A stretch of DNA of 34,161 bases from a virus (lineage: Duplodnaviria > Heunggongvirae > Uroviricota > Caudoviricetes). Of this stretch, positions 4,506-34,161 are shown piece by piece. The translations under genes were made by a program, and so were the position numbers. The notes below the pieces were generated by a model. It saw only the letters and a program-made list of their open reading frames with translations. It was not told the origin of the DNA and ran no database searches. Positions within the stretch are counted from its first letter, which is position 1. Every line of letters begins with the position of its first letter. Location of the stretch: the IMG/VR virus record IMGVR_UViG_2534681675_000021, one strand, 5' to 3'.

Positions 4506-4729
4506 TGCCGGACAACGTAGATTTTATTCAGGAACAACAGGCTGAATTACTGGAGCGTCAGATTAACGCGGCAAGGGTAAAACATTGCGGTGCTTCTGCG
4601 CTGGTTTGCGAAGAGTGTTACGCGCCAATACCTGCTGCCCGTCGTGCGGCTTATCCGTCAGCCACGCGTTGTGTTTCCTGTCAGTCAGTCTTTGAAGCAA
4701 AAAACAAACATTACCGGAGAACGGCATGA
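4505..4729 (+). CDS. TraR/DksA-family C4 zinc-finger protein (orf82-like)
   Basis: C-x2-C ... C-x2-C motif (CEECYAPIPAARRAAYPSATRCVSCQ); AGGAG Shine-Dalgarno; ATG overlaps the upstream stop. Confidence 0.6.
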   Translation: MPDNVDFIQEQQAELLERQINAARVKHCGASALVCEECYAPIPAARRAAYPSATRCVSCQSVFEAKNKHYRRTA

Positions 4730-5001
4730 GTATTCGTATTGAAATTGGCGAACGTTATGTCGTTACCAGTGACAGCTTTCAGTTTATTCTCCACGAGAAA
4801 AAGAGAGCGGAAAGCGGTAAAAACGCCGGTCAGGAATGGCTGGCAGTGGTTGGTTATTACCCGAAATTAAGCCAGCTCGTTTCCGGCATGATGCATCACG
4901 ATATTCTGACCGGAAGCGCAAAATCTTTTGCTGATTTAAACGCGCAGGTTGAGCAACTCAGCAAGCGTTGTTCAGAGGCTTTTGGCTCACATGGCCGTTA
5001 A
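4726..5001 (+). CDS. Early-operon small protein (orf83-like), hypothetical
   Basis: ORF immediately upstream of A, overlapping neighbours. Confidence 0.5.
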   Translation: MSIRIEIGERYVVTSDSFQFILHEKKRAESGKNAGQEWLAVVGYYPKLSQLVSGMMHHDILTGSAKSFADLNAQVEQLSKRCSEAFGSHGR

Positions 5002-7276
5002 AGCCTCCGGGCGTTTTGTCCCTCCGTCAGCATTTGCCGCAGGCACCGGTAAGGCGTTTACCGGTGCTTATGCATGGAACGCGCCACGCGAGGCTGTCGG
5101 GCGCGAAAGACCACTTACACGTGACGAGATGCGTCAGGTGCAAGGTGTTTTATCCACGATTAACCGCCTGCCTTACTTTTTGCGCTCGCTGTTTACTTCA
5201 CGCTATGACTACATCCGGCGCAATAAAAGCCCGGTGCACGGGTTTTATTTCCTCACATCCACTTTTCAGCGTCGTTTATGGCCGCGCATTGAGCGTGTGA
5301 ATCAGCGCCATGAAATGAACACCGACGCGTCGTTGCTGTTTCTGGCAGAGCGTGACCACTATGCGCGCCTGCCGGGAATGAATGACAAGGAGCTGAAAAA
5401 GTTTGCCGCCCGTATCTCATCGCAGCTTTTCATGATGTATGAGGAACTCAGCGATGCCTGGGTGGATGCACATGGCGAAAAAGAATCGCTGTTTACGGAT
5501 GAGGCGCAGGCTCACCTCTATGGTCATGTTGCTGGCGCTGCACGTGCTTTCAATATTTCCCCGCTTTACTGGAAAAAATACCGTAAAGGACAGATGACCA
5601 CGAGGCAGGCATATTCTGCCATTGCCCGTCTGTTTAACGATGAGTGGTGGACTCATCAGCTCAAAGGCCAGCGTATGCGCTGGCATGAGGCGTTACTGAT
5701 TGCTGTCGGGGAGGTCAATAAAGACCGTTCTCCTTATGCCAGTAAACATGCCATTCGTGATGTGCGTGCACGCCGCCAGGCAAATCTGGAATTTCTTAAA
5801 TCGTGTGATCTCGAAAACAGGGAAACCGGCGAGCGCATCGACCTTATCAGTAAGGTGATGGGCAGTATTTCTAATCCTGAAATTCGCCGGATGGAGCTGA
5901 TGAACACCATTGCCGGTATTGAGCGTTACGCCGCAGCAGAGGGTGATGTGGGGATGTTTATCACGCTGACCGCGCCGTCAAAGTATCACCCGACACGTCA
6001 GGTTGGAAAAGGCGAAAGTAAAACCGTCCAGCTAAATCACGGCTGGAACGATGAGGCATTTAATCCAAAGGATGCGCAGCGTTATCTCTGCCGTATCTGG
6101 AGCCTGATGCGCACGGCATTCAAGGATAATGATTTACAGGTCTACGGTTTGCGTGTCGTCGAGCCACACCACGACGGAACGCCGCACTGGCATATGATGC
6201 TTTTTTGTAATTCGCGCCAGCGTAACCAGATTATCGAAATCATGCGTCGCTATGCGCTCAAAGAGGATGGCGACGAAAGAGGAGCAGCGCGAAACCGTTT
6301 TCAGGCAAAACACCTTAATCGGGGCGGTGCTGCGGGGTATATCGCGAAATACATCTCAAAAAACATCGACGGCTATGCACTGGATGGTCAGCTCGATAAC
6401 GATACCGGCAGACCTCTGAAAGATACTGCCGCGGCTGTTACTGCATGGGCGTCAACGTGGCGCATCCCGCAATTTAAAACGGTTGGTCTGCCGACAATGG
6501 GGGCTTACCGTGAACTACGCAAATTGCCTCGCGGCGTCAGCATTGCTGATGAGTTTGACGAACGCGTCGAGGCTGCACGCGCTGCCGCAGACAGTGGCGA
6601 TTTTGCGTTGTATATCAGTGCGCAGGGTGGGGCAAATGTTCCGCGCGATTGCCAGACTGTCAGAGTCGCCCGTAGCCCGTCGGATGAAGTTAACGAGTAC
6701 GAGGAAGAAGTCGAGAGAGTGGTCGGCATTTACGCGCCGCATCTCGGCGCGCGTCATATTCATATCACCAGAACGACGGACTGGCGCATTGTGCCGAAAG
6801 TTCCGGTCGTGGAGCCTTTGACTTTAAAAAGCGGCATCGCCGCGCCTCGGAGTCCTGTCAATAACTGTGGAAAGCTCACCGGTGGTGATACTTCGTTACC
6901 GGCTCCCACACCTTCTGAGCACGCCGCAGCAGTGCTAAATCTGGTTGATGACGGTGTTATCGAATGGAATGACCCGGAGGTCGTGAGGACGCTCAGGGGG
7001 GCATTAAAACACGGCCTGAAAACACCAAATCGTCAGCAAAGAAACGGAAGCCCGTTAAAACCACATGAAATAGCACCGTCGGCCAGACTGACCCGGTCGG
7101 AACGATTGCAAATTACCCGTATCCGCGTTGACCTCGCTCAGAACGGTATCAGGCCGCAACGATGGGAGCTTGAGGCGCTGGCGCGTGGCGCGATCGTAAA
7201 TTCTGACGGGAAAAAATTCACGTATCCGGTCGCTGATGAGTGGCCGGGATTCTCAACAGTAATGGAGTGGACATAA
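4991..7276 (+). CDS. A: Replication initiation protein A (rolling-circle nickase), 761 aa
   Basis: 761 aa from ATG 4991 (the track start at 4949 is a TTG). Length and position as P2 A. Confidence 0.85.
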   Translation: MAVKASGRFVPPSAFAAGTGKAFTGAYAWNAPREAVGRERPLTRDEMRQVQGVLSTINRLPYFLRSLFTSRYDYIRRNKSPVHGFYFLTSTFQRRLWPRIERVNQRHEMNTDASLLFLAERDHYARLPGMNDKELKKFAARISSQLFMMYEELSDAWVDAHGEKESLFTDEAQAHLYGHVAGAARAFNISPLYWKKYRKGQMTTRQAYSAIARLFNDEWWTHQLKGQRMRWHEALLIAVGEVNKDRSPYASKHAIRDVRARRQANLEFLKSCDLENRETGERIDLISKVMGSISNPEIRRMELMNTIAGIERYAAAEGDVGMFITLTAPSKYHPTRQVGKGESKTVQLNHGWNDEAFNPKDAQRYLCRIWSLMRTAFKDNDLQVYGLRVVEPHHDGTPHWHMMLFCNSRQRNQIIEIMRRYALKEDGDERGAARNRFQAKHLNRGGAAGYIAKYISKNIDGYALDGQLDNDTGRPLKDTAAAVTAWASTWRIPQFKTVGLPTMGAYRELRKLPRGVSIADEFDERVEAARAAADSGDFALYISAQGGANVPRDCQTVRVARSPSDEVNEYEEEVERVVGIYAPHLGARHIHITRTTDWRIVPKVPVVEPLTLKSGIAAPRSPVNNCGKLTGGDTSLPAPTPSEHAAAVLNLVDDGVIEWNDPEVVRTLRGALKHGLKTPNRQQRNGSPLKPHEIAPSARLTRSERLQITRIRVDLAQNGIRPQRWELEALARGAIVNSDGKKFTYPVADEWPGFSTVMEWT

Positions 7277-7728: not shown

Positions 7729-7934
7729 TGCACAGAATACCAGGCGAGATACCGCACCATAAAACTAAAAATATCAAGCTGATGGCTATTGTTCAGCGTT
7801 TACAGCGGATTATGGTCAACGAAAATCTGACGCCCGATGAGCTGGTCGGGTGTGCCGAAATAGTACGGGATAATTACGGGCGGCTTAACTATATCGGTCA
7901 GTCCAGAGTTGCGCCACCACCACGCAGACGATAG
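7716..7934 (+). CDS. Small hypothetical protein, about 70 aa
   Basis: ORF overlapping the end of the previous gene; no recognisable motif; could be non-coding. Confidence 0.3.
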   Translation: MAWIMHRIPGEIPHHKTKNIKLMAIVQRLQRIMVNENLTPDELVGCAEIVRDNYGRLNYIGQSRVAPPPRRR

Positions 7935-8157
7935 AGAACGCCGCCAGTCGTGAAACTTGTTTTCAGGGCTGGCGGGGTTGAACAACGAGCGAAGCGAGAC
8001 GTTAGTTGACAGACATATTTTTACTACGTTGGTGCTGGTTTTTGACGGTTGAAAGGAGTTAGGTTGGAGAGCTAACAACTTACAAATATTCAAAAGTAAG
8101 CATCCTGTTGCTAACATGAGGTTGATTTTTTATGTGGATGATGCAAAAAGGATAGCT

Positions 8158-8889
8158 ATGGATACTATAATCGCTTTTCTATCACTCGCTTTTTTCGTTG
8201 CTTTCTTCATCGGGCTAATCAAGCCATCACTGGTGCGAATGCCAAACCGCAAACGTGCAAGTGCGGTTTATCTCGGAGGAGGTTTTGTATTGAGCATAAT
8301 TGGTTCAATACTCTATCCAACAGAAAAAAGCCAGCCAGTTGCTAAAACTGAAACATCAACCGTTGCAGAACACAAAGTCCAAAAAACATTCGAATATGGT
8401 GAAAAAACACTCAAGGAATATCGGAACGAGTCAAAGAAAACACGACACGATATTGTGAATAGTTACATTGATTTTAAGGAAGTTCCAGCCACCGCGTCAG
8501 ATGCGTTTTATGCCTGCATGAGTGAGTATACATTTACCAAAGATGATGAGTTGAAACTCGGTGATGTTCTTGGGTGGTGCTTTAATGATTATGAAAATGA
8601 CCCGAGTTCACTAAACAATAAAATCAATCTTGATACATTTCAGAGTAATTTTAGTGGTTGGGATGGTTCTTATCGTCCATTGGAAAAACTAATTAAAGAT
8701 AATATGAACGATGATTCATCTTATAAACATGTGTCAACGGTATATCATCTGGTTTTGAATAAAGACCCGCATGCCATTGTGAAAACCACGTTTCGCGGAA
8801 CTAATGCTTATGGCGGAGTGGTGAAACAGACGATTGCTGCGCGTGTCAATGTAGAAACAGGTGAGGTTGTATCAATTATAAGTGAGTGA
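8158..8889 (+). CDS. Cargo protein 1: membrane-anchored protein of unknown function (two predicted N-terminal TM helices, about 180-aa soluble C-terminal domain)
   Basis: AGGA Shine-Dalgarno 7 nt before ATG 8158 (an alternative ATG at 8116 has no SD). Strongly AT-rich relative to the phage backbone. Hydrophobic segments IIAFLSLAFFVAFFIGLI and AVYLGGGFVLSIIGSILY. Occupies the P2 tin/old position. Confidence 0.6.
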   Translation: MDTIIAFLSLAFFVAFFIGLIKPSLVRMPNRKRASAVYLGGGFVLSIIGSILYPTEKSQPVAKTETSTVAEHKVQKTFEYGEKTLKEYRNESKKTRHDIVNSYIDFKEVPATASDAFYACMSEYTFTKDDELKLGDVLGWCFNDYENDPSSLNNKINLDTFQSNFSGWDGSYRPLEKLIKDNMNDDSSYKHVSTVYHLVLNKDPHAIVKTTFRGTNAYGGVVKQTIAARVNVETGEVVSIISE

Positions 8890-8910
8890 ACTGTGCCAGA
8901 ATGATAAAGA

Positions 8911-8930
8911 TGCCAGCATTTATGCTGGCA
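8911..8930. other. Intergenic hairpin (TGCCAGCA-TTTA-TGCTGGCA) between the two cargo genes
   Basis: Perfect 8-bp inverted repeat with a 4-nt loop, seen directly; function unknown. Confidence 0.3.
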
Positions 8931-8987
8931 ATCATAAAAATAGTGACTAGCAAAAATTGGTGTCTGGTTTTAATGTGAGATTAGAAA

Positions 8988-9686
8988 ATGAAGAGATGTA
9001 AATATATTTTAAGAGGTTTGTTGCTGAAGTTTAAAAGTATAAGTTCTATGCATTTGTTATTTGTTTTAATAACGGCTTGTCTATTCTTTTTTATAGGGTG
9101 TTACGTGGGTTATAGTGGTATTGGTTTGAATGGTGACACTAAATACCAATTAATTACAATACCTTTTTTGACCATGTTGGGTACTTGGGTTTCTGGGGTG
9201 GGAGCATTTTCTGCTGTTGCGACATCATTGTTGTTGGCACACCGTTCGCTAAAGGAAAATTCAGAAGAAATTGCTATTCGATATAGCATGGTGTTAATAC
9301 CATCAATGTACTTACCTAGCACTACAGATACAGCAATATCAATAACCATAACAAACAAAAGAAAAGTAAGGAGTAATATTCAATCGGTTGTTTTGCAATT
9401 TTCTAATAATAAAGCAATGAATATATGGGTAAACCCCGGGACGCTTATCTCTGGCAAGTTACCGCATGTTTTAGAAGACTATGGTGATATATTGATGCTT
9501 ATAATTCCAGAGAGCATTACCGCATCAGTAACTGATGAGGGGTTCGTAAAAGAATGTCAGGGGAATACTCTTGGAGAAGGTAGCGTCGTAGTTCACACAA
9601 CGACAAAAACATTTGTAAAAAAATTAACATTACCTCAAGTTAAGCCATTTAATGATAAATTTAAGTCTGTATTGACGAAGCCGTAA
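8988..9686 (+). CDS. Cargo protein 2: membrane-anchored protein of unknown function (two predicted TM helices, about 150-aa soluble C-terminal domain)
   Basis: AT-rich; hydrophobic segments LLFVLITACLFFFIGCYVGY and ITIPFLTMLGTWVSGVGAFSAVATSLLLA; same strand and spacing as cargo gene 1; no recognisable catalytic motif. Confidence 0.6.
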   Translation: MKRCKYILRGLLLKFKSISSMHLLFVLITACLFFFIGCYVGYSGIGLNGDTKYQLITIPFLTMLGTWVSGVGAFSAVATSLLLAHRSLKENSEEIAIRYSMVLIPSMYLPSTTDTAISITITNKRKVRSNIQSVVLQFSNNKAMNIWVNPGTLISGKLPHVLEDYGDILMLIIPESITASVTDEGFVKECQGNTLGEGSVVVHTTTKTFVKKLTLPQVKPFNDKFKSVLTKP

Positions 9687-9811
9687 GAGGTGCGTTGCGT
9701 TGCATTTTTTTGCATCTTCAAGGATTAATTTCTGCATCTTTATTTTGCCAGTACTGATGTGCTTTTAATGGACTCATGCAACTGCATTAAAATCGACCCA
9801 TGAAGCGGGCG

Positions 9812-18735: not shown

Positions 18736-19186
18736 GTTTAAGCGTTTTGAAGACCGGCTGGCTGGACTGATTGAATCGCTGTCACCGTCAGGGCGTCGGC
18801 GACTGGCGGTAGATATTGCGAAGAAGCTGCGCCAGCGCCAGCAGCAGCGAATTAAATTACAAAAAGCCCCGGATGGTACGCCGTATGTACCGAGAAAAAA
18901 CCAACCAGTACGAAATAAGAAAGGCCGGATAAAGCGGGAAATGTTTGTGAAATTACGCACTAACCGGTTTATGAAAGCAACAGGTAGCGAGAGTGCGGCG
19001 GTGGTGGCGTTTGCCAGCGGAGTACAACGAATTGCGCGAGTACATCAATTAGGGCTTAGGGATAAGCCGGGGCGTAATAGTGCTGTGGTGGAATATCCTG
19101 TTCGTGAGTTATTTGGTTTTGACAAGGAATCTATACAATTGATAGAAAGGGAGTTATTAGTGATTCTATCGAAAGATGTTATATGA
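18728..19186 (+). CDS. S: Tail completion protein S
   Basis: About 150 aa; position as P2 S. Confidence 0.85.
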   Translation: MNEFKRFEDRLAGLIESLSPSGRRRLAVDIAKKLRQRQQQRIKLQKAPDGTPYVPRKNQPVRNKKGRIKREMFVKLRTNRFMKATGSESAAVVAFASGVQRIARVHQLGLRDKPGRNSAVVEYPVRELFGFDKESIQLIERELLVILSKDVI

Positions 19187-19938
19187 GACGGGTGTTTGTG
19201 GATAAAAAGTTTTCCATTTTGAGAAAAAGAGTAAAGCATTCTCAAAAGAAAGTTATGGATTGTATTATTGCTGACCATAATGCTGATATATGTGTGTTAT
19301 GCGGGAGTTCTGACGATATTACTCGTGAGCACATTATTCCTCAGTGGGCCTTTGAGTCAAATGCTGAAAAATCTTTAATTAATAAAAAGAATAATCAGTC
19401 AACTCATTACATTAAAGCCACTGTACCAGCATGCAGAGTGTGCAATTCTGATTTGCTGGGAGTGTTTGAGTATAACCTGAAGAAATTTCTTACGGAAAAG
19501 AGAGGGGAGGAGTTAACAGATTATGAGTATGATTGCATCATATGGTGGTTGCAATACATGGGTTTTAAGTTGCAATTAATGGATTTGCGGAACCGCTTTC
19601 TCAGGTATAAAGGTGGTGATTATATCCCGTTTCTTGCAAACTTCCCGGTTGCAATGTTTTGGGGGAATGTCGATACGACGCCGGGGGATGTCTTCAGGAT
19701 TATACGAAAATCGCGACGCAATCTGATGTCGAAATGGAAGGATAAAAAACATAATTCTTTGATGGTTTTTGAAACATCAAACAAGAGTTTTCATTTCTTT
19801 CATAAGGTTGATGAATTTATTTTTATTGAAATTCCTCAGGTTAAGAAGGCGTTTTTCTTCTTTTTTAATAAAGAATTTGACAGCCATGATTTAGCTCATG
19901 AGGAGTGTATGAAGATTATAGAGAAGTGCTACAACTAA
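19183..19938 (+). CDS. Cargo protein with N-terminal HNH-nuclease-like motif plus about 160-aa C-terminal domain of unknown function
   Basis: ATG overlaps the S stop (ATGA). Motif CVLCGSSDDITREHIIPQW...ACRVCNS (C-x2-C, HxxP, C-x2-C-N) is HNH-like. AT-rich. Inserted between S and V where P2 carries the moron orf30. Confidence 0.6.
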   Translation: MRRVFVDKKFSILRKRVKHSQKKVMDCIIADHNADICVLCGSSDDITREHIIPQWAFESNAEKSLINKKNNQSTHYIKATVPACRVCNSDLLGVFEYNLKKFLTEKRGEELTDYEYDCIIWWLQYMGFKLQLMDLRNRFLRYKGGDYIPFLANFPVAMFWGNVDTTPGDVFRIIRKSRRNLMSKWKDKKHNSLMVFETSNKSFHFFHKVDEFIFIEIPQVKKAFFFFFNKEFDSHDLAHEECMKIIEKCYN

Positions 19939-20015
19939 TATTTGTTATGTTGTGTCACAGCTGACAGAACCCTCCATGATTGCTGCTGGTATCGTCCAGC
20001 GGCATCCTTCCCGTT

Positions 20016-20651
20016 ATGAACACTCTCGCAAATATTCAGGAACTCGCGCGCGCACTGCGCAATATGATTCGCACCGGCGTTATCGTCGAAACCGACCTTA
20101 ACGCCGGTCGCTGCCGTGTGCAGACCGGCGGCATGTGCACCGACTGGCTTCAGTGGTTGACCCATCGTGCCGGGCGTTCGCGTACATGGTGGGCACCTTC
20201 CGTGGGGGAACAGGTGCTGATTCTGGCCGTGGGCGGTGAACTTGACACGGCGTTTGTTCTGCCGGGGATTTATTCCGGTGATAACCCCGCGCCGTCTGCG
20301 TCGGCGGATGCCCTGCATATCCGTTTCCCTGACGGGGCGGTGATTGAGTATGAACCCGAAACCAGTGCACTCATGGTAAGCGGAATTAAAACGGCCAGCG
20401 TGACGGCTTCTGATTCTGTTACTGCCACGGTGCCGGTGGTCATGGTGAAAGCATCAACCCGCATCACCATGGACGCACCGGAGGTGGTCTGCACCAACAG
20501 GCTGATTACCGACACGCTGGAAGTGCAGAAGGGCGGGACGATGCGCGGCAACATTGAACACACCGGCGGTGAACTCTCATCAAACGGTAAGGTACTGCAT
20601 ACCCATAAACACCCCGGCGACAGCGGCGGCACAACCGGGAGTCCTCTATGA
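20016..20651 (+). CDS. V: Baseplate spike/assembly protein V, 211 aa
   Basis: 211 aa from MNTLANIQEL; position and length as P2 V. Confidence 0.9.
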   Translation: MNTLANIQELARALRNMIRTGVIVETDLNAGRCRVQTGGMCTDWLQWLTHRAGRSRTWWAPSVGEQVLILAVGGELDTAFVLPGIYSGDNPAPSASADALHIRFPDGAVIEYEPETSALMVSGIKTASVTASDSVTATVPVVMVKASTRITMDAPEVVCTNRLITDTLEVQKGGTMRGNIEHTGGELSSNGKVLHTHKHPGDSGGTTGSPL

Positions 20652-20999: not shown

Positions 21000-21908
21000 A
21001 TGCCGATTATCGACCTGAACCAGCTACCCGCACCGGATGTGGTCGAGGAGCTGGACTTTGAAACCATTCTTGCCGAACGCAAGGCGACACTGATTTCCCT
21101 TTACCCGGAAGACCAGCAGGAGGCGGTCGCCCGTACCCTGACGCTGGAATCTGAGCCTCTCGTCAAACTGCTGGAGGAAAATGCTTATCGTGAGCTTATC
21201 TGGCGTCAGCGTGTGAATGAGGCTGCACGGGCGGTGATGCTGGCCTGTGCCGCCGGTAATGACCTTGATGTAATTGGTGCCAATTACAACACCACACGCC
21301 TGATTATCACCCCGGCAGATGATTCGACCCTCCCGCCGACACCGGCCGTGATGGAATCTGACACCGATTATCGTCTGCGTATTCAGCAGGCGTTTGAAGG
21401 TTTAAGCGTCGCCGGGTCGGTGGGGGCCTATCAGTATCATGGTCGAAGTGCCGACGGGCGTGTCGCAGATATCTCTGTCACCAGTCCTTCTCCGGCCTGC
21501 GTCACCATCTCTGTGCTGTCACGTGAAAATAACGGTGTGGCATCCGAAGACCTGCTGGCGGTGGTGCGCAACGCCCTTAATGGTGAGGACGTCAGACCGG
21601 TGGCCGACCGTGTGACCGTGCAGTCTGCCGTCATCGTTGAATACCAGATAAATGCCACGCTTTACCTTTACCCTGGCCCCGAAAGCGAACCCATTCGCGC
21701 TGCCGCCGTGAAAAAACTGGAAGCGTATATCACGGCACAGCACCGGCTGGGGCGCGACATCCGACTGTCTGCCATTTATGCCGCTTTGCATGTGGAAGGC
21801 GTGCAGCGTGTCGAACTGGCTGCACCGCTGGCCGACATCGTGCTCAACAATACGCAGGCGTCTTTCTGTACCGAATACAGCGTCGTGACCGGAGGCTCGG
21901 ATGAGTGA
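21000..21908 (+). CDS. J: Baseplate protein J, 302 aa
   Basis: 302 aa; position as P2 J. Confidence 0.9.
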   Translation: MPIIDLNQLPAPDVVEELDFETILAERKATLISLYPEDQQEAVARTLTLESEPLVKLLEENAYRELIWRQRVNEAARAVMLACAAGNDLDVIGANYNTTRLIITPADDSTLPPTPAVMESDTDYRLRIQQAFEGLSVAGSVGAYQYHGRSADGRVADISVTSPSPACVTISVLSRENNGVASEDLLAVVRNALNGEDVRPVADRVTVQSAVIVEYQINATLYLYPGPESEPIRAAAVKKLEAYITAQHRLGRDIRLSAIYAALHVEGVQRVELAAPLADIVLNNTQASFCTEYSVVTGGSDE

Positions 21909-22512
21909 TTCGCGACTGCTGCCGACCGGCTCATCACCGCTTGAAGTCGCTGCCGCAAAAGCCTGTGCGGAAATTGAAAAAACGCCGGTCAGTATTCGTG
22001 AGCTGTGGAACCCGGACACCTGCCCGGCAAATCTGCTGCCGTGGCTGGCGTGGTCATTTTCGGTTGACCGCTGGGATGATAAGTGGCCGGAAGCGACAAA
22101 ACGCGCTGTTATCCGCGATGCGTATTTCATTCACTGCCATAAGGGCACTATAGGCGCAATCCGGCGTGTGGTGGAGCCGCTCGGCTATCTGATTGAGGTG
22201 AGGGAGTGGTGGCAGCTCAACGAGGAGCCGGGGACGTTCCGCATCGTTGTTGGCGTGCTTGAGCAGGGTATTACCGAGGAAATGTATCAGGAGCTGGAGC
22301 GCCTCGTTGCTGATGCAAAACCGGCAAGCCGCCATCTGACGGGACTGGCTATCAGTTTAAGTACAACCGGCAACATTTTTGCCGGTGCGGGATGCTATCA
22401 CGGTGACGCCCTGACGGTTTATCCCTACACCCCGGAGGCCATTATTGTCGGAGGGGATTATTTCCCGGCCTCGGCCATTCATTTAATTGATAACCTGAGA
22501 GTAAACGCATGA
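21901..22512 (+). CDS. I: Baseplate protein I
   Basis: Position between J and H; start may lie at an internal ATG. Confidence 0.8.
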   Translation: MSDSRLLPTGSSPLEVAAAKACAEIEKTPVSIRELWNPDTCPANLLPWLAWSFSVDRWDDKWPEATKRAVIRDAYFIHCHKGTIGAIRRVVEPLGYLIEVREWWQLNEEPGTFRIVVGVLEQGITEEMYQELERLVADAKPASRHLTGLAISLSTTGNIFAGAGCYHGDALTVYPYTPEAIIVGGDYFPASAIHLIDNLRVNA

Positions 22513-23816
22513 CAGTGAAATACTACGCCATTCTGACTAATCAGGGCGCAGCACGGCTGGCTAACGCGACGATGCTCGGCAGTAAGCTGAATCTGACGCA
22601 AATGGCCGTTGGTGATGCGAATGGTGTCTTGCCGACACCAGACCCGGCACAGACAAAACTGATTAACCAGAAACGCATCGCGCCGCTGAATCTTCTGAGT
22701 GTTGACCCGAACAACCAGAGCCAGATTATTGCGGAGCAAATCATCCCTGAGAACGAGGGCGGATTCTGGATCCGTGAGATTGGGCTTTATGATGATGAAG
22801 GCGTACTCATTGCGGTGGCGAACTGCCCGGAAACGTACAAACCGCAGTTGCAGGAAGGCAGTGGTCGTACCCAGACTATCCGCATGATTCTGGTTGTCAC
22901 GAATACCGAAGCTATTACGCTGAAAATCGACCCGTCGGTGGTACTGGCGACCCGTAAATACGTGGATGATGAAGTCCTGGAATTAAGGCTGTATGTGGAT
23001 GACCAGATGAGAAACCACATTGCCGCACAGGATCCTCATACCCAGTATGCACAGAAACATAATCCGACATTTACCGGAGAACCAAAAGCGCCGACGCCTG
23101 CCGCAGGGAATAACACCACGCGGATTGCGACCACTGAGTTTGTTCAGGCCGCTATTACCGCTCTGATTAACGGTGCGCCAGCCACGCTGGACACACTGAA
23201 AGAAATTGCCGCAGCCATTAACAATGACCCGAAATTCAGTACCACCATTAACAATGCGCTGTCAGGTAAGCAGCCACTGGATGAGACGCTGACTCATTTG
23301 AGTGGAAAGGATGTTGCCGGTCTTCTCGCATACCTTGGTTTGGGAGAAGGCTCTGCATTACCTGTTGGTGTGCCTGTTCCATGGCCTTCAGCCACACCGC
23401 CAACAGGCTGGCTGAAATGCAACGGTGCGGCTTTTTCTGCTGAAGAATACCCGGAACTGGCAAAGGCTTATCCGACAAATAAATTGCCTGATTTACGTGG
23501 TGAGTTTATTCGTGGCTGGGATGACGGGCGCGGTATTGATGCAGGACGTGTTTTATTGAGCATTCAGACAGGGATGCTGGAAAAACACCGCCATATTGTT
23601 GTTGCCAATGATGGTTACGACACAAAAGATGAATGGGAACTGGCTACGATTTTCAAAAAGACATACACACAAGGACGGGGACTTGATGCCGCAAATACAG
23701 GAGGGAGTCTGATCCCATCACCGACACTTCATTCACGAGGGAGTATCGGTAATACTGGCGGGAGTGAAACCCGTCCACGAAATATTGCATTTAACTATAT
23801 CGTGAGGGCTGCATAA
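22509..23816 (+). CDS. H: Tail fibre protein H (constant N-terminal part plus currently expressed variable C-terminal part), 435 aa
   Basis: Position as P2 H; the C-terminal third lies inside the invertible segment, downstream of the crossover site at 23323-23348. Confidence 0.85.
   Translation: MTVKYYAILTNQGAARLANATMLGSKLNLTQMAVGDANGVLPTPDPAQTKLINQKRIAPLNLLSVDPNNQSQIIAEQIIPENEGGFWIREIGLYDDEGVLIAVANCPETYKPQLQEGSGRTQTIRMILVVTNTEAITLKIDPSVVLATRKYVDDEVLELRLYVDDQMRNHIAAQDPHTQYAQKHNPTFTGEPKAPTPAAGNNTTRIATTEFVQAAITALINGAPATLDTLKEIAAAINNDPKFSTTINNALSGKQPLDETLTHLSGKDVAGLLAYLGLGEGSALPVGVPVPWPSATPPTGWLKCNGAAFSAEEYPELAKAYPTNKLPDLRGEFIRGWDDGRGIDAGRVLLSIQTGMLEKHRHIVVANDGYDTKDEWELATIFKKTYTQGRGLDAANTGGSLIPSPTLHSRGSIGNTGGSETRPRNIAFNYIVRAA
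23323..23348. other. Left recombination (crossover) site of the tail-fibre invertible segment, inside H
   Basis: 26-bp sequence TTCTCGCATACCTTGGTTTGGGAGAA is 21/26 identical, in inverted orientation, to 25191-25216, including a shared GGTTTGGGAGAA half-site that encodes G-L-G-E in both fibre reading frames. Confidence 0.6.
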
Positions 23817-24418
23817 TGGATAACGCCGTATTAAATAGCGAGCTTATTGCCACGAAGGCGGGGAATATTACCGTCTATAACTATGATGGTAAAACTCGGG
23901 AATATATTTCTACTTCAAATGAATATCTTGCCATTGGTGTCGGTATCCCTGCATATTCCTGTCTGGATGAACCTGGTATACATAAGGCGGGTTATGCTAT
24001 CTGCCGTTCGATGGATTTAAACTCATGGGAATATGTGCCAGACCATCGCGGTGAAATCGTCTATAACACCGAAACGGGAGACGCCAAAGAAATCACAGCT
24101 CCGGGTGATTATCCTGAAAATACAACCACTATCGCCCCGTTAACGCCATTCGATAAATGGGATGGTAAGAAATGGGTGACCGATACTGAGGCACAGCATA
24201 GCGCCGCAGTAGACGCGGCAGAAGCACAGCGTCAGTCACTGATTGATACTGCAATGGCTTCCATCAGTCTGATTCAACTGAAATTGCAGGCCGGGCGGAA
24301 GCTGACGCAGGCAGAAACCACCCGACTTAACGCTGTGCTGGATTACATTGACGCGGTGACGGCAACAGATACGAGCACCGCGCCGGATGTCATCTGGCCT
24401 GAACTGCCGGAGGCGTAG
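23816..24418 (+). CDS. G: Tail fibre assembly chaperone G, 200 aa
   Basis: ATG overlaps the H stop; position as P2 G. Confidence 0.8.
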   Translation: MDNAVLNSELIATKAGNITVYNYDGKTREYISTSNEYLAIGVGIPAYSCLDEPGIHKAGYAICRSMDLNSWEYVPDHRGEIVYNTETGDAKEITAPGDYPENTTTIAPLTPFDKWDGKKWVTDTEAQHSAAVDAAEAQRQSLIDTAMASISLIQLKLQAGRKLTQAETTRLNAVLDYIDAVTATDTSTAPDVIWPELPEA

Positions 24419-24830
24419 GCCATTCAATATCTGGCGCACCGGAAGTATCGACCAGTTCCAGTGCGTCCAGGTAATCCAGCCACAAATTATATTGCGCCAG
24501 TTCGTCACCTTTCAGACGACCAATAGCCGCTTTACCAGGCCATTGTTTACTGTTCATATAATCGTTGGCCTGATTAATCAATTGCTGCTTCTCCAGTTCG
24601 GCTGCAGCAATTTGTTCCTCATGTGTTGGTGGTGGAATTTCGGACCATGCAGGAAAACCATTTTCTCCAGCGATACGGATTTTTCCTTTCGGCGGTAATC
24701 CGGAAAACTCAATATACACTTGCTCATCAACTTCAACAGCATCATCTGGCCATGAGTCAGCTTGAGTGTAATCCTCTTTCATCTCCAGCGGATAGAAAGA
24801 GTTTGTAGTCGCGGAATATATGTAATTCAT
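24390..24830 (-). CDS. Alternative tail fibre assembly chaperone (G'), 146 aa, inverted orientation
   Basis: Convergent with G and overlapping its 3' end; C-terminus (...WLDYLDALELVDTSGAPDIEWPTPPA) parallels the G C-terminus (...VLDYIDAVTATDTSTAPDVIWPELPEA). Confidence 0.7.
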   Translation of the reverse strand: MNYIYSATTNSFYPLEMKEDYTQADSWPDDAVEVDEQVYIEFSGLPPKGKIRIAGENGFPAWSEIPPPTHEEQIAAAELEKQQLINQANDYMNSKQWPGKAAIGRLKGDELAQYNLWLDYLDALELVDTSGAPDIEWPTPPAVQAR

Positions 24831-24851
24831 TTTTCACTCCATATAGCTAAA

Positions 24852-25244
24852 TTAACAGCCTAACGCTAAAAATGAAGCGCCGAGGCCAGGAGTACTGGCT
24901 CTGGATATAAATTTAACCGGGTCGGGACTAAAACCTGCACAGGCAATATAACCAACAGCCCCGCTATCTGGTGTATAGTCTTGTGAGACCAAAACACGCA
25001 GACATCTGTTTGGAAATGCAATTGGGAAATGGGTTACTACATCCTGTGCAATGCCTGGAGCGCCGATTGAGCCCCACTGAAGAATAAAACCTGATGGTAA
25101 TTTTTGATATCCAGTACCTGAAACAGAAAGCGTGAAGCTACCCATATCAGGTATCTGATTCGCCCCTGTCCCTACATTCCTTTTAGCCGCTTCTCCCAAA
25201 CCAACGTTTATGAAAATGCAGAGATAACGGGCAACTGGCATCAT
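24852..25244 (-). CDS. Alternative tail fibre variable C-terminal segment (Hv'), silent in this orientation
   Basis: Minus-strand ORF directly upstream of G'. It contains the shared G-L-G-E junction encoded at the right crossover site; it would fuse to the constant part of H after inversion. The annotated Met is probably not a real start. Confidence 0.6.
25191..25216. other. Right recombination (crossover) site of the invertible segment
   Basis: TTCTCCCAAACCAACGTTTATGAAAA, an imperfect palindrome resembling hix/gix-type sites and an inverted repeat of 23323-23348; lies just upstream of the invertase gene. Confidence 0.6.
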
Positions 25245-25265
25245 CTCCGGTTTTTATTCAGGGGG

Positions 25266-25865
25266 ATGCTCATGCTTATTGGCTATGTACGCGTGTCAAC
25301 AAATGACCAGAACACGGAATTGCAGCGTAACGCGCTGGAGTGCGCAGGATGCGAGCGGATTTTTGAGGATAAAATCAGCGGCACGAAGTCCGACCGACCG
25401 GGACTGAAAAAACTGCTCAGAACATTATCAGCAGGTGACACTCTGGTAGTCTGGAAGCTGGACCGGCTGGGGCGTAGTATGCGGCATCTGGTCATTCTGG
25501 TTGAGGAGCTGCGCGAACGCGGCGTTAATTTTCGCAGCCTGACAGATGCTATTGATACCAGCACGCCGATGGGGCGTTTTTTCTTTCATGTGATGGGTGC
25601 CCTGGCTGAAATGGAGCGAGAACTCATTGTCGAGCGGACACGCGCTGGACTGGAAGCGGCCAGAGCCAAAGGGCGTATTGGTGGCAGACGTCCGAAGCTC
25701 ACCGCGAGTGAGTGGGAGCAGGCCGGGCGGTTGCTGGCTGCGGGGGAATCTCGTCAACGTGTGGCGCTGATTTTTGATATTGGCCTGTCCACGCTCTATA
25801 AAAAATTCCCCTCATCAGCGACAAAGAATAAATTGTGTCATCCCTTAGCCAACCGGGACAAATAG
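25266..25865 (+). CDS. Serine DNA invertase of the Hin/Gin/Cin/Pin family, 199 aa
   Basis: N-terminal MLIGYVRVSTNDQNTELQRNAL (catalytic Ser in YVRVST) and overall strong resemblance to e14 Pin as I recall it; C-terminal helix-turn-helix; adjacent to the invertible fibre segment. Confidence 0.9.
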   Translation: MLMLIGYVRVSTNDQNTELQRNALECAGCERIFEDKISGTKSDRPGLKKLLRTLSAGDTLVVWKLDRLGRSMRHLVILVEELRERGVNFRSLTDAIDTSTPMGRFFFHVMGALAEMERELIVERTRAGLEAARAKGRIGGRRPKLTASEWEQAGRLLAAGESRQRVALIFDIGLSTLYKKFPSSATKNKLCHPLANRDK

Positions 25866-25924
25866 CCTGACATCTCCGGCACAACTGAAAATACCACTCA
25901 CCCATTAACCACGGAGTTAAACGG

Positions 25925-27115
25925 ATGAGTGACTATCATCACGGCGTGCAGGTGCTGGAGATTAACGACGGCACCCGCGTCATTTCCACCGTATCCACTG
26001 CCATTGTCGGCATGGTCTGCACGGCCAGCGATGCGGATGCGGAAACCTTCCCCCTCAATAAACCTGTGCTGATTACCAATGTGCAGAGCGCAATTGCAAA
26101 GGCCGGTAAAAAAGGCACGCTGGCAGCATCGTTGCAGGCCATCGCTGACCAGTCAAAACCGGTCACCGTTGTCGTGCGTGTGGAAGACGGCACCGGCGAC
26201 GACGAAGAAACGAAACTCGCGCAGACCGTTTCCAATATCATCGGCACCACCGACGAAAACGGTCAGTACACCGGACTGAAAGCCCTGCTGGCGGCGGAGT
26301 CGGTTACCGGTGTTAAACCGCGTATTCTTGGTGTGCCGGGACTGGACACCAAAGAGGTGGCGGTTGCACTGGCATCCGTCTGTCAGAAGCTGCGCGCTTT
26401 CGGGTATATCAGCGCATGGGGCTGTAAAACCATTTCCGAGGTGAAAGCCTACCGCCAGAATTTCAGCCAGCGTGAGCTGATGGTCATCTGGCCGGATTTC
26501 CTCGCATGGGATACGGTCACCAGTACCACCGCCACCGCGTATGCCACCGCCCGTGCGCTGGGTCTGCGTGCCAAAATCGACCAGGAGCAGGGCTGGCATA
26601 AAACGCTGTCCAACGTCGGGGTGAACGGTGTTACCGGCATCAGCGCATCTGTATTCTGGGATTTGCAGGAGTCCGGCACCGATGCTGACCTGCTTAACGA
26701 GTCAGGCGTCACAACGCTGATTCGCCGTGACGGTTTCCGCTTCTGGGGTAACCGTACCTGCTCTGATGACCCGCTGTTCCTCTTTGAAAACTACACCCGC
26801 ACCGCGCAGGTGCTGGCCGACACGATGGCTGAGGCGCATATGTGGGCGGTGGACAAGCCTATCACCGCAACGCTGATTCGCGACATCGTTGACGGCATCA
26901 ATGCCAAATTCCGTGAGCTGAAAACAAACGGCTATATCGTGGATGCGACCTGCTGGTTCAGCGAAGAATCCAACGATGCGGAAACCCTTAAGGCCGGAAA
27001 ACTGTATATCGACTACGACTATACCCCGGTGCCTCCTCTTGAAAACCTGACCCTGCGCCAGCGTATTACCGATAAATACCTGGCAAATCTGGTCACCTCG
27101 GTTAACAGCAATTAA
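25925..27115 (+). CDS. FI: Tail sheath protein FI, 396 aa
   Basis: 396 aa; position and length as P2 FI. Confidence 0.95.
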   Translation: MSDYHHGVQVLEINDGTRVISTVSTAIVGMVCTASDADAETFPLNKPVLITNVQSAIAKAGKKGTLAASLQAIADQSKPVTVVVRVEDGTGDDEETKLAQTVSNIIGTTDENGQYTGLKALLAAESVTGVKPRILGVPGLDTKEVAVALASVCQKLRAFGYISAWGCKTISEVKAYRQNFSQRELMVIWPDFLAWDTVTSTTATAYATARALGLRAKIDQEQGWHKTLSNVGVNGVTGISASVFWDLQESGTDADLLNESGVTTLIRRDGFRFWGNRTCSDDPLFLFENYTRTAQVLADTMAEAHMWAVDKPITATLIRDIVDGINAKFRELKTNGYIVDATCWFSEESNDAETLKAGKLYIDYDYTPVPPLENLTLRQRITDKYLANLVTSVNSN

Positions 27116-27127
27116 GGAGCCTGACCG

Positions 27128-27646
27128 ATGGCAATGCCGCGCAAACTCAAGTTAATGAACGTCTTTCTGAACGGCTACAGCTATCAGGGCGTTGCAAAGT
27201 CCGTCACGCTGCCAAAACTGACCCGTAAGCTCGAAAACTATCGCGGTGCGGGGATGAACGGCAGCGCACCGGTAGACCTCGGCCTTGATGACGATGCGCT
27301 GTCAATGGAGTGGTCGCTCGGGGGCTTCCCGGATTCGGTTATCTGGGAGCTTTACGCCGCAACCGGCGTGGATGCCGTGCCGATTCGTTTTGCAGGCTCT
27401 TACCAGCGCGACGATACCGGCGAAACGGTGGCCGTCGAAGTGGTCATGCGTGGACGTCAGAAAGAAATCGACACCGGCGAGGGCAAACAGGGAGAAGACA
27501 CCGAGTCGAAAATCTCCGTGGTCTGCACCTATTTCCGGCTGACGATGGACGGTAAGGAGCTGGTCGAAATTGACACCATCAACATGATTGAAAAGGTGAA
27601 CGGCGTCGACCGGCTGGAGCAACACCGCCGCAATATCGGCCTGTGA
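27128..27646 (+). CDS. FII: Tail tube protein FII, 172 aa
   Basis: 172 aa; position and length as P2 FII. Confidence 0.95.
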   Translation: MAMPRKLKLMNVFLNGYSYQGVAKSVTLPKLTRKLENYRGAGMNGSAPVDLGLDDDALSMEWSLGGFPDSVIWELYAATGVDAVPIRFAGSYQRDDTGETVAVEVVMRGRQKEIDTGEGKQGEDTESKISVVCTYFRLTMDGKELVEIDTINMIEKVNGVDRLEQHRRNIGL

Positions 27647-32564: not shown

Positions 32565-32628
32565 GTCGATGTGGTCAATGTGTGGACGTGACCAGAAATA
32601 AATCCTTTTATTTCATTGTATTACGCGT

Positions 32629-32655
32629 AAAAAATAAGCCCGTGTAAGGGAGATT
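32629..32655. other. attR core (27 bp), identical to attL core
   Basis: Exact repeat of 1313-1339; lies within the 3' end of cyaR. Confidence 0.85.
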
Positions 32656-32799: not shown

Positions 32800-34161
32800 T
32801 CACTTACCGTGGGGGTTACGCGTGGTTTCCCCGGAGAAATTTCGCATCAGCAGCGCGTAATTTAGCTCAAGATCCTGCGGGACCGGGATCCACACAGTAT
32901 AACCATCGCCAGGTGCGACCGGCATTGCTTCGCCTTTGGCGTTTTCCATATGCTCAAGGGTAAAGTTAATGTTCCCTTGCGGCGTCATCAGCTCAAGGCT
33001 GTCGCCAACGGAGAATTTATTTTTCACCGCTACCGCCGCGAGGTCGCCCTTGCGCTCACCGGTAAACTCACCAACAAACTGCTGGCGGTCAGAAACTGAA
33101 TAACCGTATTCGTAGTTCTGATAATCGTCGTGAGTATGACGACGCAGGAAACCTTCGGTATAGCCACGATGCGCCAGACCTTCCAGAGTTTCCAGCAGGC
33201 TGGTATCGAATGGTTTTCCCGCAGCTGCGTCATCGATAGCTTTACGGTAAACCTGCGCGGTGCGTGCGCAATAGTAGAAAGATTTTGTACGACCTTCGAT
33301 TTTCAGCGAATGCACGCCCATTTTGGTCAGGCGTTCAACGTGGGCGATAGCGCGCAGATCTTTCGAGTTCATGATGTAAGTGCCGTGCTCATCTTCAAAC
33401 GCGGTCATATACTCGCCCGGACGCTGAGCTTCTTCGATCATAAACACTTTGTCGGTTGGCGCGCCGATACCCAGCGTCGGCTCAACATTTTGCACCGGAA
33501 TCGGCTCGTACTTGTGCACGATGTTGCCAACGTCATCTTCTTTCCCTTCCTGGACGTTGTACTCCCAGCGGCAGGCGTTGGTGCAGGTGCCCTGGTTCGG
33601 GTCGCGCTTGTTGATATAGCCAGAGAGCAGGCAGCGACCGGAGTAGGCCATGCACAGCGCGCCGTGAACGAAGATCTCTACCTCCATATCCGGCACCTGA
33701 TTGCGGATCTCTTCAATCTCTTCCAGCGACAGCTCGCGAGAGAGGATCACGCGGGTCAGGCCCATTTGCTGCCAGAATTTCACCGTCGCCCAGTTCACGG
33801 CGTTAGCCTGTACCGAGAGATGGATCGGCATTTCAGGGAAGTGCTCACGCACCAGCATAATCAGCCCTGGATCGGACATTATTAGCGCATCCGGCCCCAT
33901 TTCCACCACCGGTTTCAGGTCACGGATAAAGGTTTTCAGCTTGGCGTTGTGCGGTGCAATGTTGACCACAACATAAAACTTTTTCCCCAGCGCGTGGGCT
34001 TCATTAATGCCGAGCTGAAGATTTTCGTGGTTGAATTCGTTGTTGCGCACACGCAGGGAGTAACGCGGCTGGCCCGCATAAACAGCATCTGCGCCATAAG
34101 CGAAAGCGTAACGCATATTTTTCAGCGTTCCCGCCGGGGAAAGGAGTTCCGGTTTAAACAT
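32800..34161 (-). CDS. yegQ: U32-family peptidase-like protein YegQ (TrhP, tRNA hydroxylation protein), 453 aa, host gene
   Basis: Complete 453-aa ORF (MFKPELLSPAGTLKNMRYAFAYGADAVYAGQPRYSLR...); U32 family features; higher GC and host-like codon usage; adjacent to cyaR. Confidence 0.85.
   Translation of the reverse strand: MFKPELLSPAGTLKNMRYAFAYGADAVYAGQPRYSLRVRNNEFNHENLQLGINEAHALGKKFYVVVNIAPHNAKLKTFIRDLKPVVEMGPDALIMSDPGLIMLVREHFPEMPIHLSVQANAVNWATVKFWQQMGLTRVILSRELSLEEIEEIRNQVPDMEVEIFVHGALCMAYSGRCLLSGYINKRDPNQGTCTNACRWEYNVQEGKEDDVGNIVHKYEPIPVQNVEPTLGIGAPTDKVFMIEEAQRPGEYMTAFEDEHGTYIMNSKDLRAIAHVERLTKMGVHSLKIEGRTKSFYYCARTAQVYRKAIDDAAAGKPFDTSLLETLEGLAHRGYTEGFLRRHTHDDYQNYEYGYSVSDRQQFVGEFTGERKGDLAAVAVKNKFSVGDSLELMTPQGNINFTLEHMENAKGEAMPVAPGDGYTVWIPVPQDLELNYALLMRNFSGETTRNPHGK

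Follow-up and report, generated by a model that had tools for sequence, protein, structure and literature searches.

The window (the whole 34,161-nucleotide stretch of DNA that we analysed) is, judging by its sequence, a whole and apparently complete P2-like prophage of Escherichia coli, and its tail-fibre operon very probably contains a working two-state inversion switch of the Din family (the Gin/Cin/Pin/Hin type). Two convergent sets of genes lie on opposite strands, each with a fibre tip and its own Caudo_TAP chaperone, and the invertase is encoded outside them (Table 1). A sequence-only reading of this DNA had proposed such a segment, and both of its orientations are found in nature.

Table 1. 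Coordinates of the tail-fibre switch and its neighbourhood in the window.
Feature	Position	Strand	Remarks
H, tail-fibre gene	22509-23816	+	435 aa; Pfam Phage_tail_fib N-terminal domain (residues 1-150) and Collar
Constant N-terminal part of H, both switch states	22509-23334	+	Same in GPEC1209 and GPEC1210
Left crossover site	23323-23348	+	26 bp, inside H; TT centre 23335-23336; in-frame L-L-A-Y-L-G-L-G-E
Variable tip A of H, StfE-like, expressed orientation	23337-23816	+	Pfam Collar; phrog_523 tail collar fibre
Chaperone A (G / TfaE-like, tail fibre assembly)	23816-24418	+	200 aa; Pfam Caudo_TAP, 3.9e-33
Chaperone B (alternative tail fibre assembly protein), silent as oriented here	24390-24830	-	146 aa; Pfam Caudo_TAP, 1.5e-37
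Variable tip B, promoterless fibre tip	24852-25202	-	Pfam Gp53-like_C
Right crossover site	25191-25216	-	26 bp; centre 25203-25204; 0 mismatches to consensus
Serine DNA invertase, outside invertible segment	25272-25865	+	197 aa; Pfam Resolvase 8e-53 and HTH_7 1e-12
Putative recombinational enhancer (inferred)	25290-25361	+	Invertase nt 19-90; counterpart of cin enhancer
Equivalent of P2 PF late-promoter activator-binding region	25828-25856	+	Aligned to P2 17555-17583; right cassette edge

We have two kinds of evidence that the segment inverts. First, GPEC1209 and GPEC1210, which are sister strains from chickens, are identical across 11 kb of this region except that the DNA corresponding to 23350-25189 of the window is reverse-complemented, with no mismatches. 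The breakpoints fall inside the predicted crossover sites and can be placed only to within the 15 bp that are common to both sites. Because the two strains differ by the inversion alone over 11 kb, the flip must be very recent. Second, among complete E. coli genomes with matches that cover at least 80% of the sequence, 48 carry the orientation of the window and 42 the flipped orientation. Among copies at 99% identity or above, the counts are 3 and 8. (After we flipped the 3-kb sequence in silico, 8 genomes matched it over a single collinear piece, at 99.1-99.9% identity.) So near-identical natural prophages carry the segment both ways around, with the exchange within the predicted sites, and we infer from these relatives that the copy in the window flips as well.

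We then examined the crossover sites. The left site (L) is TTCTCGCATACC TT GGTTTGGGAGAA, and the reverse complement of the right site, rc(R), is TTTTCATAAACG TT GGTTTGGGAGAA. These two imperfectly dyad-symmetric sites are the same at 21 of 26 positions, including the central TT and the entire inner half. Together, 23323-23349 and 25190-25216 form the top-ranked inverted repeat in 21000-27500, with 27-nt arms that are 81% complementary. A degenerate consensus, whose sources were solely Mu gixL/R, P1 cixL/R, and the two e14 sites, matches the 34-kb window exactly twice, once on each strand, with one mismatch at the left site and none at the right. The chance expectation is 0.01, and none of 100 shuffles had two or more matches. 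(When we tested the length of the longest perfect inverted repeat within 21000-27500 by shuffling, self-palindromes were counted too, and these reached 14-18 nt in the shuffles; the consensus search was used instead.) The consensus search found no third site in the 34-kb window, as a multi-state shufflon would have. Thus the two inverted 26-bp sites of the sequence-only reading are borne out, both as the top inverted repeat and as the sole consensus matches. They also align with gixL/R column by column, and the right one agrees with the pinE-proximal e14 site at 26 of 26 positions. The same inner half-sites occur in e14 and in the Mu-like and P2-like elements of enteropathogenic E. coli (EPEC). 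The earlier estimate of about 1.87 kb for the segment fits the distance between the site centres (1868 bp) but not the DNA that is changed by inversion, which is 23350-25189, or 1840 bp.

The adjacent gene encodes an intact, full-length Din-family invertase of the Pin/Gin/Cin type. The earlier reading had put a serine invertase immediately outside the segment, and this holds, as does its placement in the family: the protein has both Resolvase and HTH_7 domains, and its amino acid identity is 86% to e14 Pin, 78% to Cin, and 77% to Gin. Translation probably begins at the second ATG (25272), as in RefSeq, and not at 25266. The E value is 1e-94 against the sequence of the Gin crystal structure (3uj3) and 4e-33 against gamma-delta resolvase. 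A resolvase or a transposon-associated recombinase is rejected, as identity to Gin and Pin is far higher and invertase-specific residues are present. The motif YVRVSTNDQ contains the catalytic nucleophile Ser9 (Ser10 in Hin), and R42 is kept. H106 and M114, which we take to be the positions of Fis-independent Gin mutants, are wild type, so nothing predicts that this invertase is independent of Fis. Certain residues are conserved only in Fis/enhancer-dependent invertases (in Hin, K47, R/K48, R/K51, Q151, R154, and L155; PMC3798978), and the corresponding residues are all present here (K46, K47, R50, Q150, R153, and L154 in Gin numbering). The C-terminus is 13 residues longer than that of e14 Pin and runs into P2 PF promoter DNA. 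Between the right site and the start of the gene, there is a weak hairpin with a T-run (25233-25252).

Din-family inversion depends on Fis and on negative supercoiling, and by homology the switch here would depend on Fis and on a putative enhancer. In the P1 record, the cin enhancer is annotated at nt 19-90 of cin, and this stretch of the invertase gene is 78% identical. It contains two candidate Fis cores (25293-25307 and 25342-25356) with 13-14 matches out of 15 to cin and pin. The centre of the first core lies about 96 bp from the centre of the right site. The second core, GCGCAGGATGCGAGC, has a G/C-rich centre, yet it is nearly as in cin and pin. At positions where the amino acid is invariant across the window's invertase, cin, gin, and pinE, codon identity is 0.55 inside the enhancer stretch and 0.46 outside, which is a slight difference in a small sample, and conservation of the stretch is inseparable from coding constraint.

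On the model of the homologous Gin and Hin, dimers of the invertase on both sites would form a synapse with a Fis-bound enhancer, which would lie within the first ~90 nt of the invertase's own gene. The invertase would then cleave at the central TT, and rotation by 180 degrees and religation would follow. Because the TT centre is not palindromic, religation would occur only in the inversion alignment.

Given a full-length invertase with all of its key residues and two intact crossover sites, it is quite improbable that this copy is a frozen relic, which was once invertible but no longer flips, and that the two orientations are old states that were inherited separately. Some relatives do have damaged invertases (in KC618326, divergence sets in after about residue 129, and the protein has just 164 amino acids), and a simple scan for sigma-70-like promoters found no convincing site for the invertase. 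But a relic does not fit with the very recent flip between GPEC1209 and GPEC1210, or with the presence of both orientations (3 versus 8) among copies that are at least 99% identical.

Another issue is which invertase acts. Gin, Cin, Pin, and Hin can substitute for one another, and the window's right site has the same sequence as e14's, with inner half-sites that are shared across e14 and the EPEC elements. Also, three places in the best-matching genome match parts of our query. An e14-like or Mu-like element in the same cell might therefore provide a same-family invertase that does most of the inversion in trans. We consider this very improbable, as the adjacent invertase is intact, in the canonical position, and has a putative enhancer in cis. 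Inversion in trans would in any case be compatible with a two-state switch and would leave the identity of the element unchanged. Finally, breakpoints that are resolved only to the 15 bp common to both sites do not by themselves tell the mechanisms apart, but RecA-dependent homologous recombination between short repeats, or an assembly artefact, is hardly credible: the perfect match between the sites is just 15 bp, a length over which RecA-dependent exchange is not efficient, the repeats are genuine gix/cix-type sites beside a dedicated invertase, and the same inversion is seen in dozens of independent complete genomes.

We now turn to what the two-state switch would express. The first ~275 codons of H are constant. 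By analogy with P2, H would be transcribed within the late V-W-J-I-H-G operon. In the present orientation, this would yield H with the Collar tip (435 amino acids), followed by the TfaE-like chaperone. After inversion, it would yield H with an unrelated Gp53-like tip (392 amino acids), followed by a different chaperone. In the current orientation, tip B has neither its own fibre N-terminal part nor an upstream operon, but inversion in silico fuses it to H in frame, giving the 392-amino-acid fibre, and this form is annotated as a phage tail protein in the flipped genomes. As the sequence-only reading had it, the G-L-G-E junction is common to both fibre versions, each of which reads ...AYLGLGE... 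through the crossover site. That reading also assigned an alternative fibre C-terminus and chaperone to the opposite strand, and the ORFs there do match Gp53-like_C and Caudo_TAP. We found no significant similarity between tip A and tip B, and the similarity of the two chaperones is confined to their C-terminal ~70 amino acids (38%). Tips A and B probably recognise different receptors.

The proposed Mu G / P1 C / e14 P architecture matches the annotated segments of all three elements. The P region of e14, a cryptic prophage of E. coli K-12, has the same gene order as the window (stfP-tfaP / tfaE-stfE / pinE): a tip and its chaperone, a convergent chaperone and tip, and the invertase outside. 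Across the site and pinE, the two DNA sequences are 84.6% identical, and they share the inner half-site and the central TT. e14's stfE and tfaE are 88-92% identical to tip A and chaperone A at the nucleotide level. (The DNA of tip A, at 23332-23567, is 92% identical to stfE and also to the EPEC cassette; chaperone A is 88% identical to tfaE, and tfaE is the name in the RefSeq annotation of relatives.) Tip B has no nucleotide match in the e14 locus, and the second chaperone gene matches only at its 3' end. Also, e14 is a defective lambdoid element whose fibre gene is a remnant, whereas the cassette in the window is attached to H of an apparently complete P2-like prophage.

In the G segment of Mu, a gix site within the reading frame links a constant Sc to either Sv or Sv', with the junction N-L-G-L-Q-E instead of the window's Y-L-G-L-G-E. 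Mu also has two chaperones (U and U'), and gin lies outside and adjoins the distal site, with a site-to-gene spacing like the window's. However, the Mu segment is 3 kb long, its central dinucleotide is TC rather than TT, and beyond the invertase gene it has no nucleotide similarity to the window, and the tips are therefore distinct in DNA sequence. Mu itself is a transposable phage, not a P2-like one. The C segment of P1 has a central TT as here, and its inner half-site, GGTTTAAGAGAA, resembles the window's GGTTTGGGAGAA. But with respect to S, cin is found on the other side, the segment measures 4.2 kb, and the P1 crossover sites sit within much longer inverted repeats.

An experimental precedent comes from a P2-like remnant in EPEC E2348/69, where whole-genome sequencing of clonal cultures detected a homologous cassette both ways around (Goldberg et al. 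2014, PMC4272514, Table S1). This locus (NC_011601 2977580-2979467) is collinear with 23333-25998 of the window, at 86-92% nucleotide identity, and the window's two tips, two chaperones, recombinase, and downstream sheath gene all recur in it. But a deletion has removed H's constant part and all that lay upstream of it, an integrase fragment remains, and the invertase is more divergent. Another P2-like locus in EPEC has three repeats and four states, while the window has two sites only (PMC4272514). Invertases in the Z/fun hotspot were also noted in a comparative survey (2024 preprint, bioRxiv 10.1101/2024.10.15.618418). The system is thus already known: Mu G, P1 C, and e14 P are textbook members of its class, and it is annotated in public records.

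The rest of the window is close to P2 (NC_001895): four blocks, which span int to orf91, cos to S, V to I, and FI to attP, are 94-98% identical to it at the nucleotide level. The gene order is that of P2, and the high identity extends over the replication, head, lysis, and tail modules. A 28-bp direct repeat, at 1312-1339 and 32628-32655, provides att core repeats at both ends, and the closest phage records are from Peduovirus. Scans with PADLOC, Pfam, and NCBIfam gave no function for the prophage's other cargo ORFs. The homology to P2 stops at 22337 and restarts at about 25833-25845, at the PF promoter. Judged from this alignment, the invertible cassette stands in place of P2's own H tip, G, and Z/fun. 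Prototype P2 shares the late-operon layout, but its H is fixed (669 amino acids) and is followed by a single G; next, ahead of PF, comes fun(Z), which is encoded on the opposite strand. P2 lacks both an invertase and an alternative tip. The sequence-only reading was therefore right that the cassette sits at the Z/fun position and is absent from prototype P2, where fun(Z) lies between G and FI. Because the 3' end of the invertase ORF overlaps the equivalent of the PF region, and ends inside the activator-binding region, expression of the invertase or read-through could be coupled to late transcription.

The homology to e14 begins at the crossover site (23332) and continues, with gaps, to 25702 in the invertase gene, while the flanks are pure P2. 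Given these boundaries and the right site's 26/26 match, exchange by Din invertases could move modules. Rare intermolecular or enhancer-independent exchange at L-G-L-x-E might carry tip, chaperone, and invertase modules between e14-, Mu-, and P2-type elements. That the crossover site doubles as a portable junction, which swaps receptor-binding cassettes between unrelated phages, nevertheless seems unlikely to us.

An invertible tail-fibre cassette in this prophage raises no new question; its value lies in correct annotation. The minus-strand "gp53-like" fragment and the second chaperone would be the alternative state of H, and not pseudogenes. With a two-state switch, a population of lysogens and the phage that it releases would therefore be a mix of two receptor specificities, and any prediction of this prophage's host range should count two receptor-binding proteins.

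Between 22509 and 25865, the phage has two complete alternative tip-plus-chaperone sets, crossover sites that are in frame with the fibre gene, and an intact invertase, and inversion at the sites has occurred in nature. A sequence-only reading had proposed two inverted sites, two convergent tip-chaperone sets, and a serine invertase gene just outside them, and we see all of these. The minus-strand assembly gene and tip (set B) converge with the plus-strand H and its assembly gene (set A), and the two tips belong to unrelated families (Collar vs. Gp53-like_C). The start of the invertase gene is most likely 25272, the one that RefSeq gives for an almost identical copy; this is a small correction. 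The convergent chaperone genes share a 29-nt overlap (24390-24418). Also, an inverted repeat (24337-24354 and 24463-24480) falls on the similar C-terminal ends of the two chaperones, both of which have the motif LDY(I/L)DA there; we read the repeat as a probable reflection of this common motif.

Features of the invertible cassette and of the cargo at the old/tin hotspot
Feature	Coordinates	Strand	Domains or remarks
Cargo ORF	7800-8117	-
Cargo ORF	8116-8889
Cargo ORF	8988-9686
H, tail fibre, 435 aa	22509-23816	+	Phage_tail_fib (Pfam) N-terminal domain and Collar domain
Left crossover site	23323-23348		26 bp, within H
Tail-fibre assembly gene, 200 aa	23816-24418	+	Caudo_TAP
Second assembly gene	24390-24830	-	Caudo_TAP
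Fibre tip without its own fibre N-terminal part	24852-25202 (fibre frame)	-	Gp53-like_C
Right crossover site	25191-25216		26 bp
Serine recombinase (invertase)	25272-25865	+	Resolvase and HTH_7
FI, sheath gene (P2)	from 25925		next gene after the invertase

The top inverted repeat in 21000-27500 has its arms at 23323-23349 and 25190-25216. The left 26-mer is TTCTCGCATACC-TT-GGTTTGGGAGAA and the right 26-mer, as its reverse complement, is TTTTCATAAACG-TT-GGTTTGGGAGAA; the two share the central TT and all of the inner half. As further small corrections, the distance between the site centres is 1868 bp, and inversion alters the DNA at 23350-25189. If 23335-25204 is inverted in silico, the result is an uninterrupted fibre of 392 amino acids (H'), and ...L-A-Y-L-G-L-G-E spans the site in both fibre versions. 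The earlier observation, with its shared G-L-G-E junction, thus holds. (The junction in Mu, N-L-G-L-Q-E, is similar to Y-L-G-L-G-E.)

These sites also resemble known crossover sites. We built a degenerate 26-mer from six sites (Mu gixL/R, P1 cixL/R, and those of e14), leaving out the window's own sites and placing the centres of cixL/R where the P1 record annotates the crossover. Allowing up to 3 mismatches, this pattern has exactly two matches in the 34-kb window, namely the two proposed sites, on opposite strands and with 1 and 0 mismatches. (By chance, 0.01 would be expected, and 0 of 100 shuffled sequences had two matches.) Both sites give gap-free alignments with gixL and gixR, and the right site is identical to the pinE-proximal e14 site at 26/26 positions. 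The site search found no third crossover site in the window, so this is a two-state switch.

We have several pieces of evidence for inversion in nature. First, we searched both versions of 22900-25900 (as in the window and flipped in silico) against complete E. coli genomes. At 80% coverage or more, the window's orientation is found in 48 genomes and the flipped construct in 42. The window's orientation is present at 100% identity in strain PE144 (NZ_OZ287278, around 3065240-3068240), and eight genomes contain the flipped construct as one collinear piece at 99.1-99.9% identity.

Second, GPEC1209 and GPEC1210, which are chicken isolates from one series, have the prophage at a common location, flanked by proteins with matching accessions. 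Across 11,001 bp, their sole difference is that 1840 bp (window 23350-25189) is reverse-complemented, with no mismatch. The exchange must therefore be very recent and lie within the 15 bp that the two sites have in common, which is too short for ordinary homologous recombination.

Third, there is direct experimental support in the literature: in clonal cultures of EPEC E2348/69, whole-genome sequencing found both orientations of the tail-fibre segments of two P2-like prophages (Goldberg et al. 2014, PMC4272514). One of the two, NC_011601 2977580-2979467, aligns collinearly with window 23333-25998 (86-92% identity) and shares its gene order. This cassette (2744-5613 of L011, which is NC_011601 2974500-2982500) lies in a prophage remnant, in which an integrase fragment takes the place of H's constant part and of all upstream sequence. 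Even so, both orientations were detected (Goldberg et al., PMC4272514).

The recombinase is indeed of the Pin/Cin family, as had been suggested: its identity to e14 Pin is 86%, to Cin 78%, and to Gin 77%, with E = 1e-94 against the crystallised Gin sequence and 4e-33 against gamma-delta resolvase. The catalytic Ser9 and Arg42 are present. Certain basic helix-B and DBD helix-1 positions are kept only among Fis/enhancer-dependent invertases (McLean et al., PMC3798978), and this protein has both groups (K46, K47, and R50; Q150, R153, and L154). Its C-terminus is 13 residues longer than that of Pin.

The 5' region of the invertase gene has a candidate for the enhancer. The cin enhancer is annotated at cin nt 19-90 in the P1 record, and its counterpart, a putative enhancer at 25290-25361, is 78% identical. 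It includes two candidate Fis cores, the G...C-bounded 15-mers GTGTCAACAAATGAC and GCGCAGGATGCGAGC (25293-25307 and 25342-25356), which agree with cin and pin at 13-14 positions out of 15. The first is about 96 bp from the centre of the right site, close to the figure of about 100 bp given for hin. A caveat is that the most conserved part of the enzyme is encoded here too, and conservation of the sequence therefore proves little by itself; codon conservation is 0.55 inside vs. 0.46 outside, which does not separate an enhancer from coding constraint. Under the Gin/Hin paradigm, invertase dimers on both sites would synapse with the Fis-bound enhancer, cut at the central TT, rotate subunits by 180 degrees, and religate; the asymmetric centre would impose inversion. 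Apart from the putative enhancer, a predicted dependence on Fis, and a predicted difference in host range, the element has all the hallmarks of a Din-family inversion system and of a fibre switch like that of Mu G.

The window contains a complete P2-like prophage, bounded by a 28-bp direct repeat (the att core; 1312-1339 and 32628-32655). Four blocks are 94-98% identical to P2 (int to orf91, cos to S, V to I, and FI to attP). In P2, H is fixed (669 aa) and is followed by G, by fun(Z) on the other strand, and by the PF promoter. Here, P2 homology ends at 22337, where gene I ends, and restarts within the PF activator-binding region, at about 25833-25845. The cassette thus fills the space of the H tip, G, and Z/fun, which agrees with the Z/fun position assigned earlier. 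The last 11 or so codons and the stop of the invertase gene (25828-25865) lie in DNA homologous to that activator-binding region, so the right edge of the cassette abuts the promoter.

Elsewhere, the old/tin hotspot of P2 (window 7730-9700) holds different, visibly A+T-rich cargo ORFs. These had no match in Pfam, NCBIfam, or PADLOC, and the PHROGs that they matched are all of unknown function; they may represent exclusion or defence genes that are still uncharacterised. P2 homology is also broken at 18952-20016, where P2 has orf30. This gap holds a plus-strand ORF (19183-19938, 251 aa; phrog_10503, of unknown function) with only a sub-threshold match to HNH_5. The left flank (1-411) has a partial IS-type transposase OrfA (HTH_Tnp_1), and trhP (yegQ) is in the right flank (32800-34161).

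By sequence similarity, the cassette is related to the e14 P region: identity is 92% between window 23332-23567 and stfE, 88% between 23766-24567 and tfaE plus the end of tfaP, and 85% between 25190-25702 and the site with pinE. An invertible cassette here is not new; the sequence-only reading was correct and sound, but the finding is ordinary. The layout is already annotated in phage records such as KC618326, pro483, and OQ383618 (which has a gene named hin), RefSeq annotation covers both switch states, and a published study has shown a homologous cassette to flip (PMC4272514). Similarly, a survey of P2-like phages reported that the Z/fun hotspot often has a DNA invertase and inverted adjacent genes (bioRxiv 10.1101/2024.10.15.618418).

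A relative from E. coli O157:H43 T22, phage KC618326, has an invertase (4604-5098) of only 164 amino acids, which departs from the others past residue 129 or so. A frameshift is the probable cause, and the switch may thus be locked in some relatives. If Mu and P1 are a guide, particles assembled in the two states should adsorb to different receptors.
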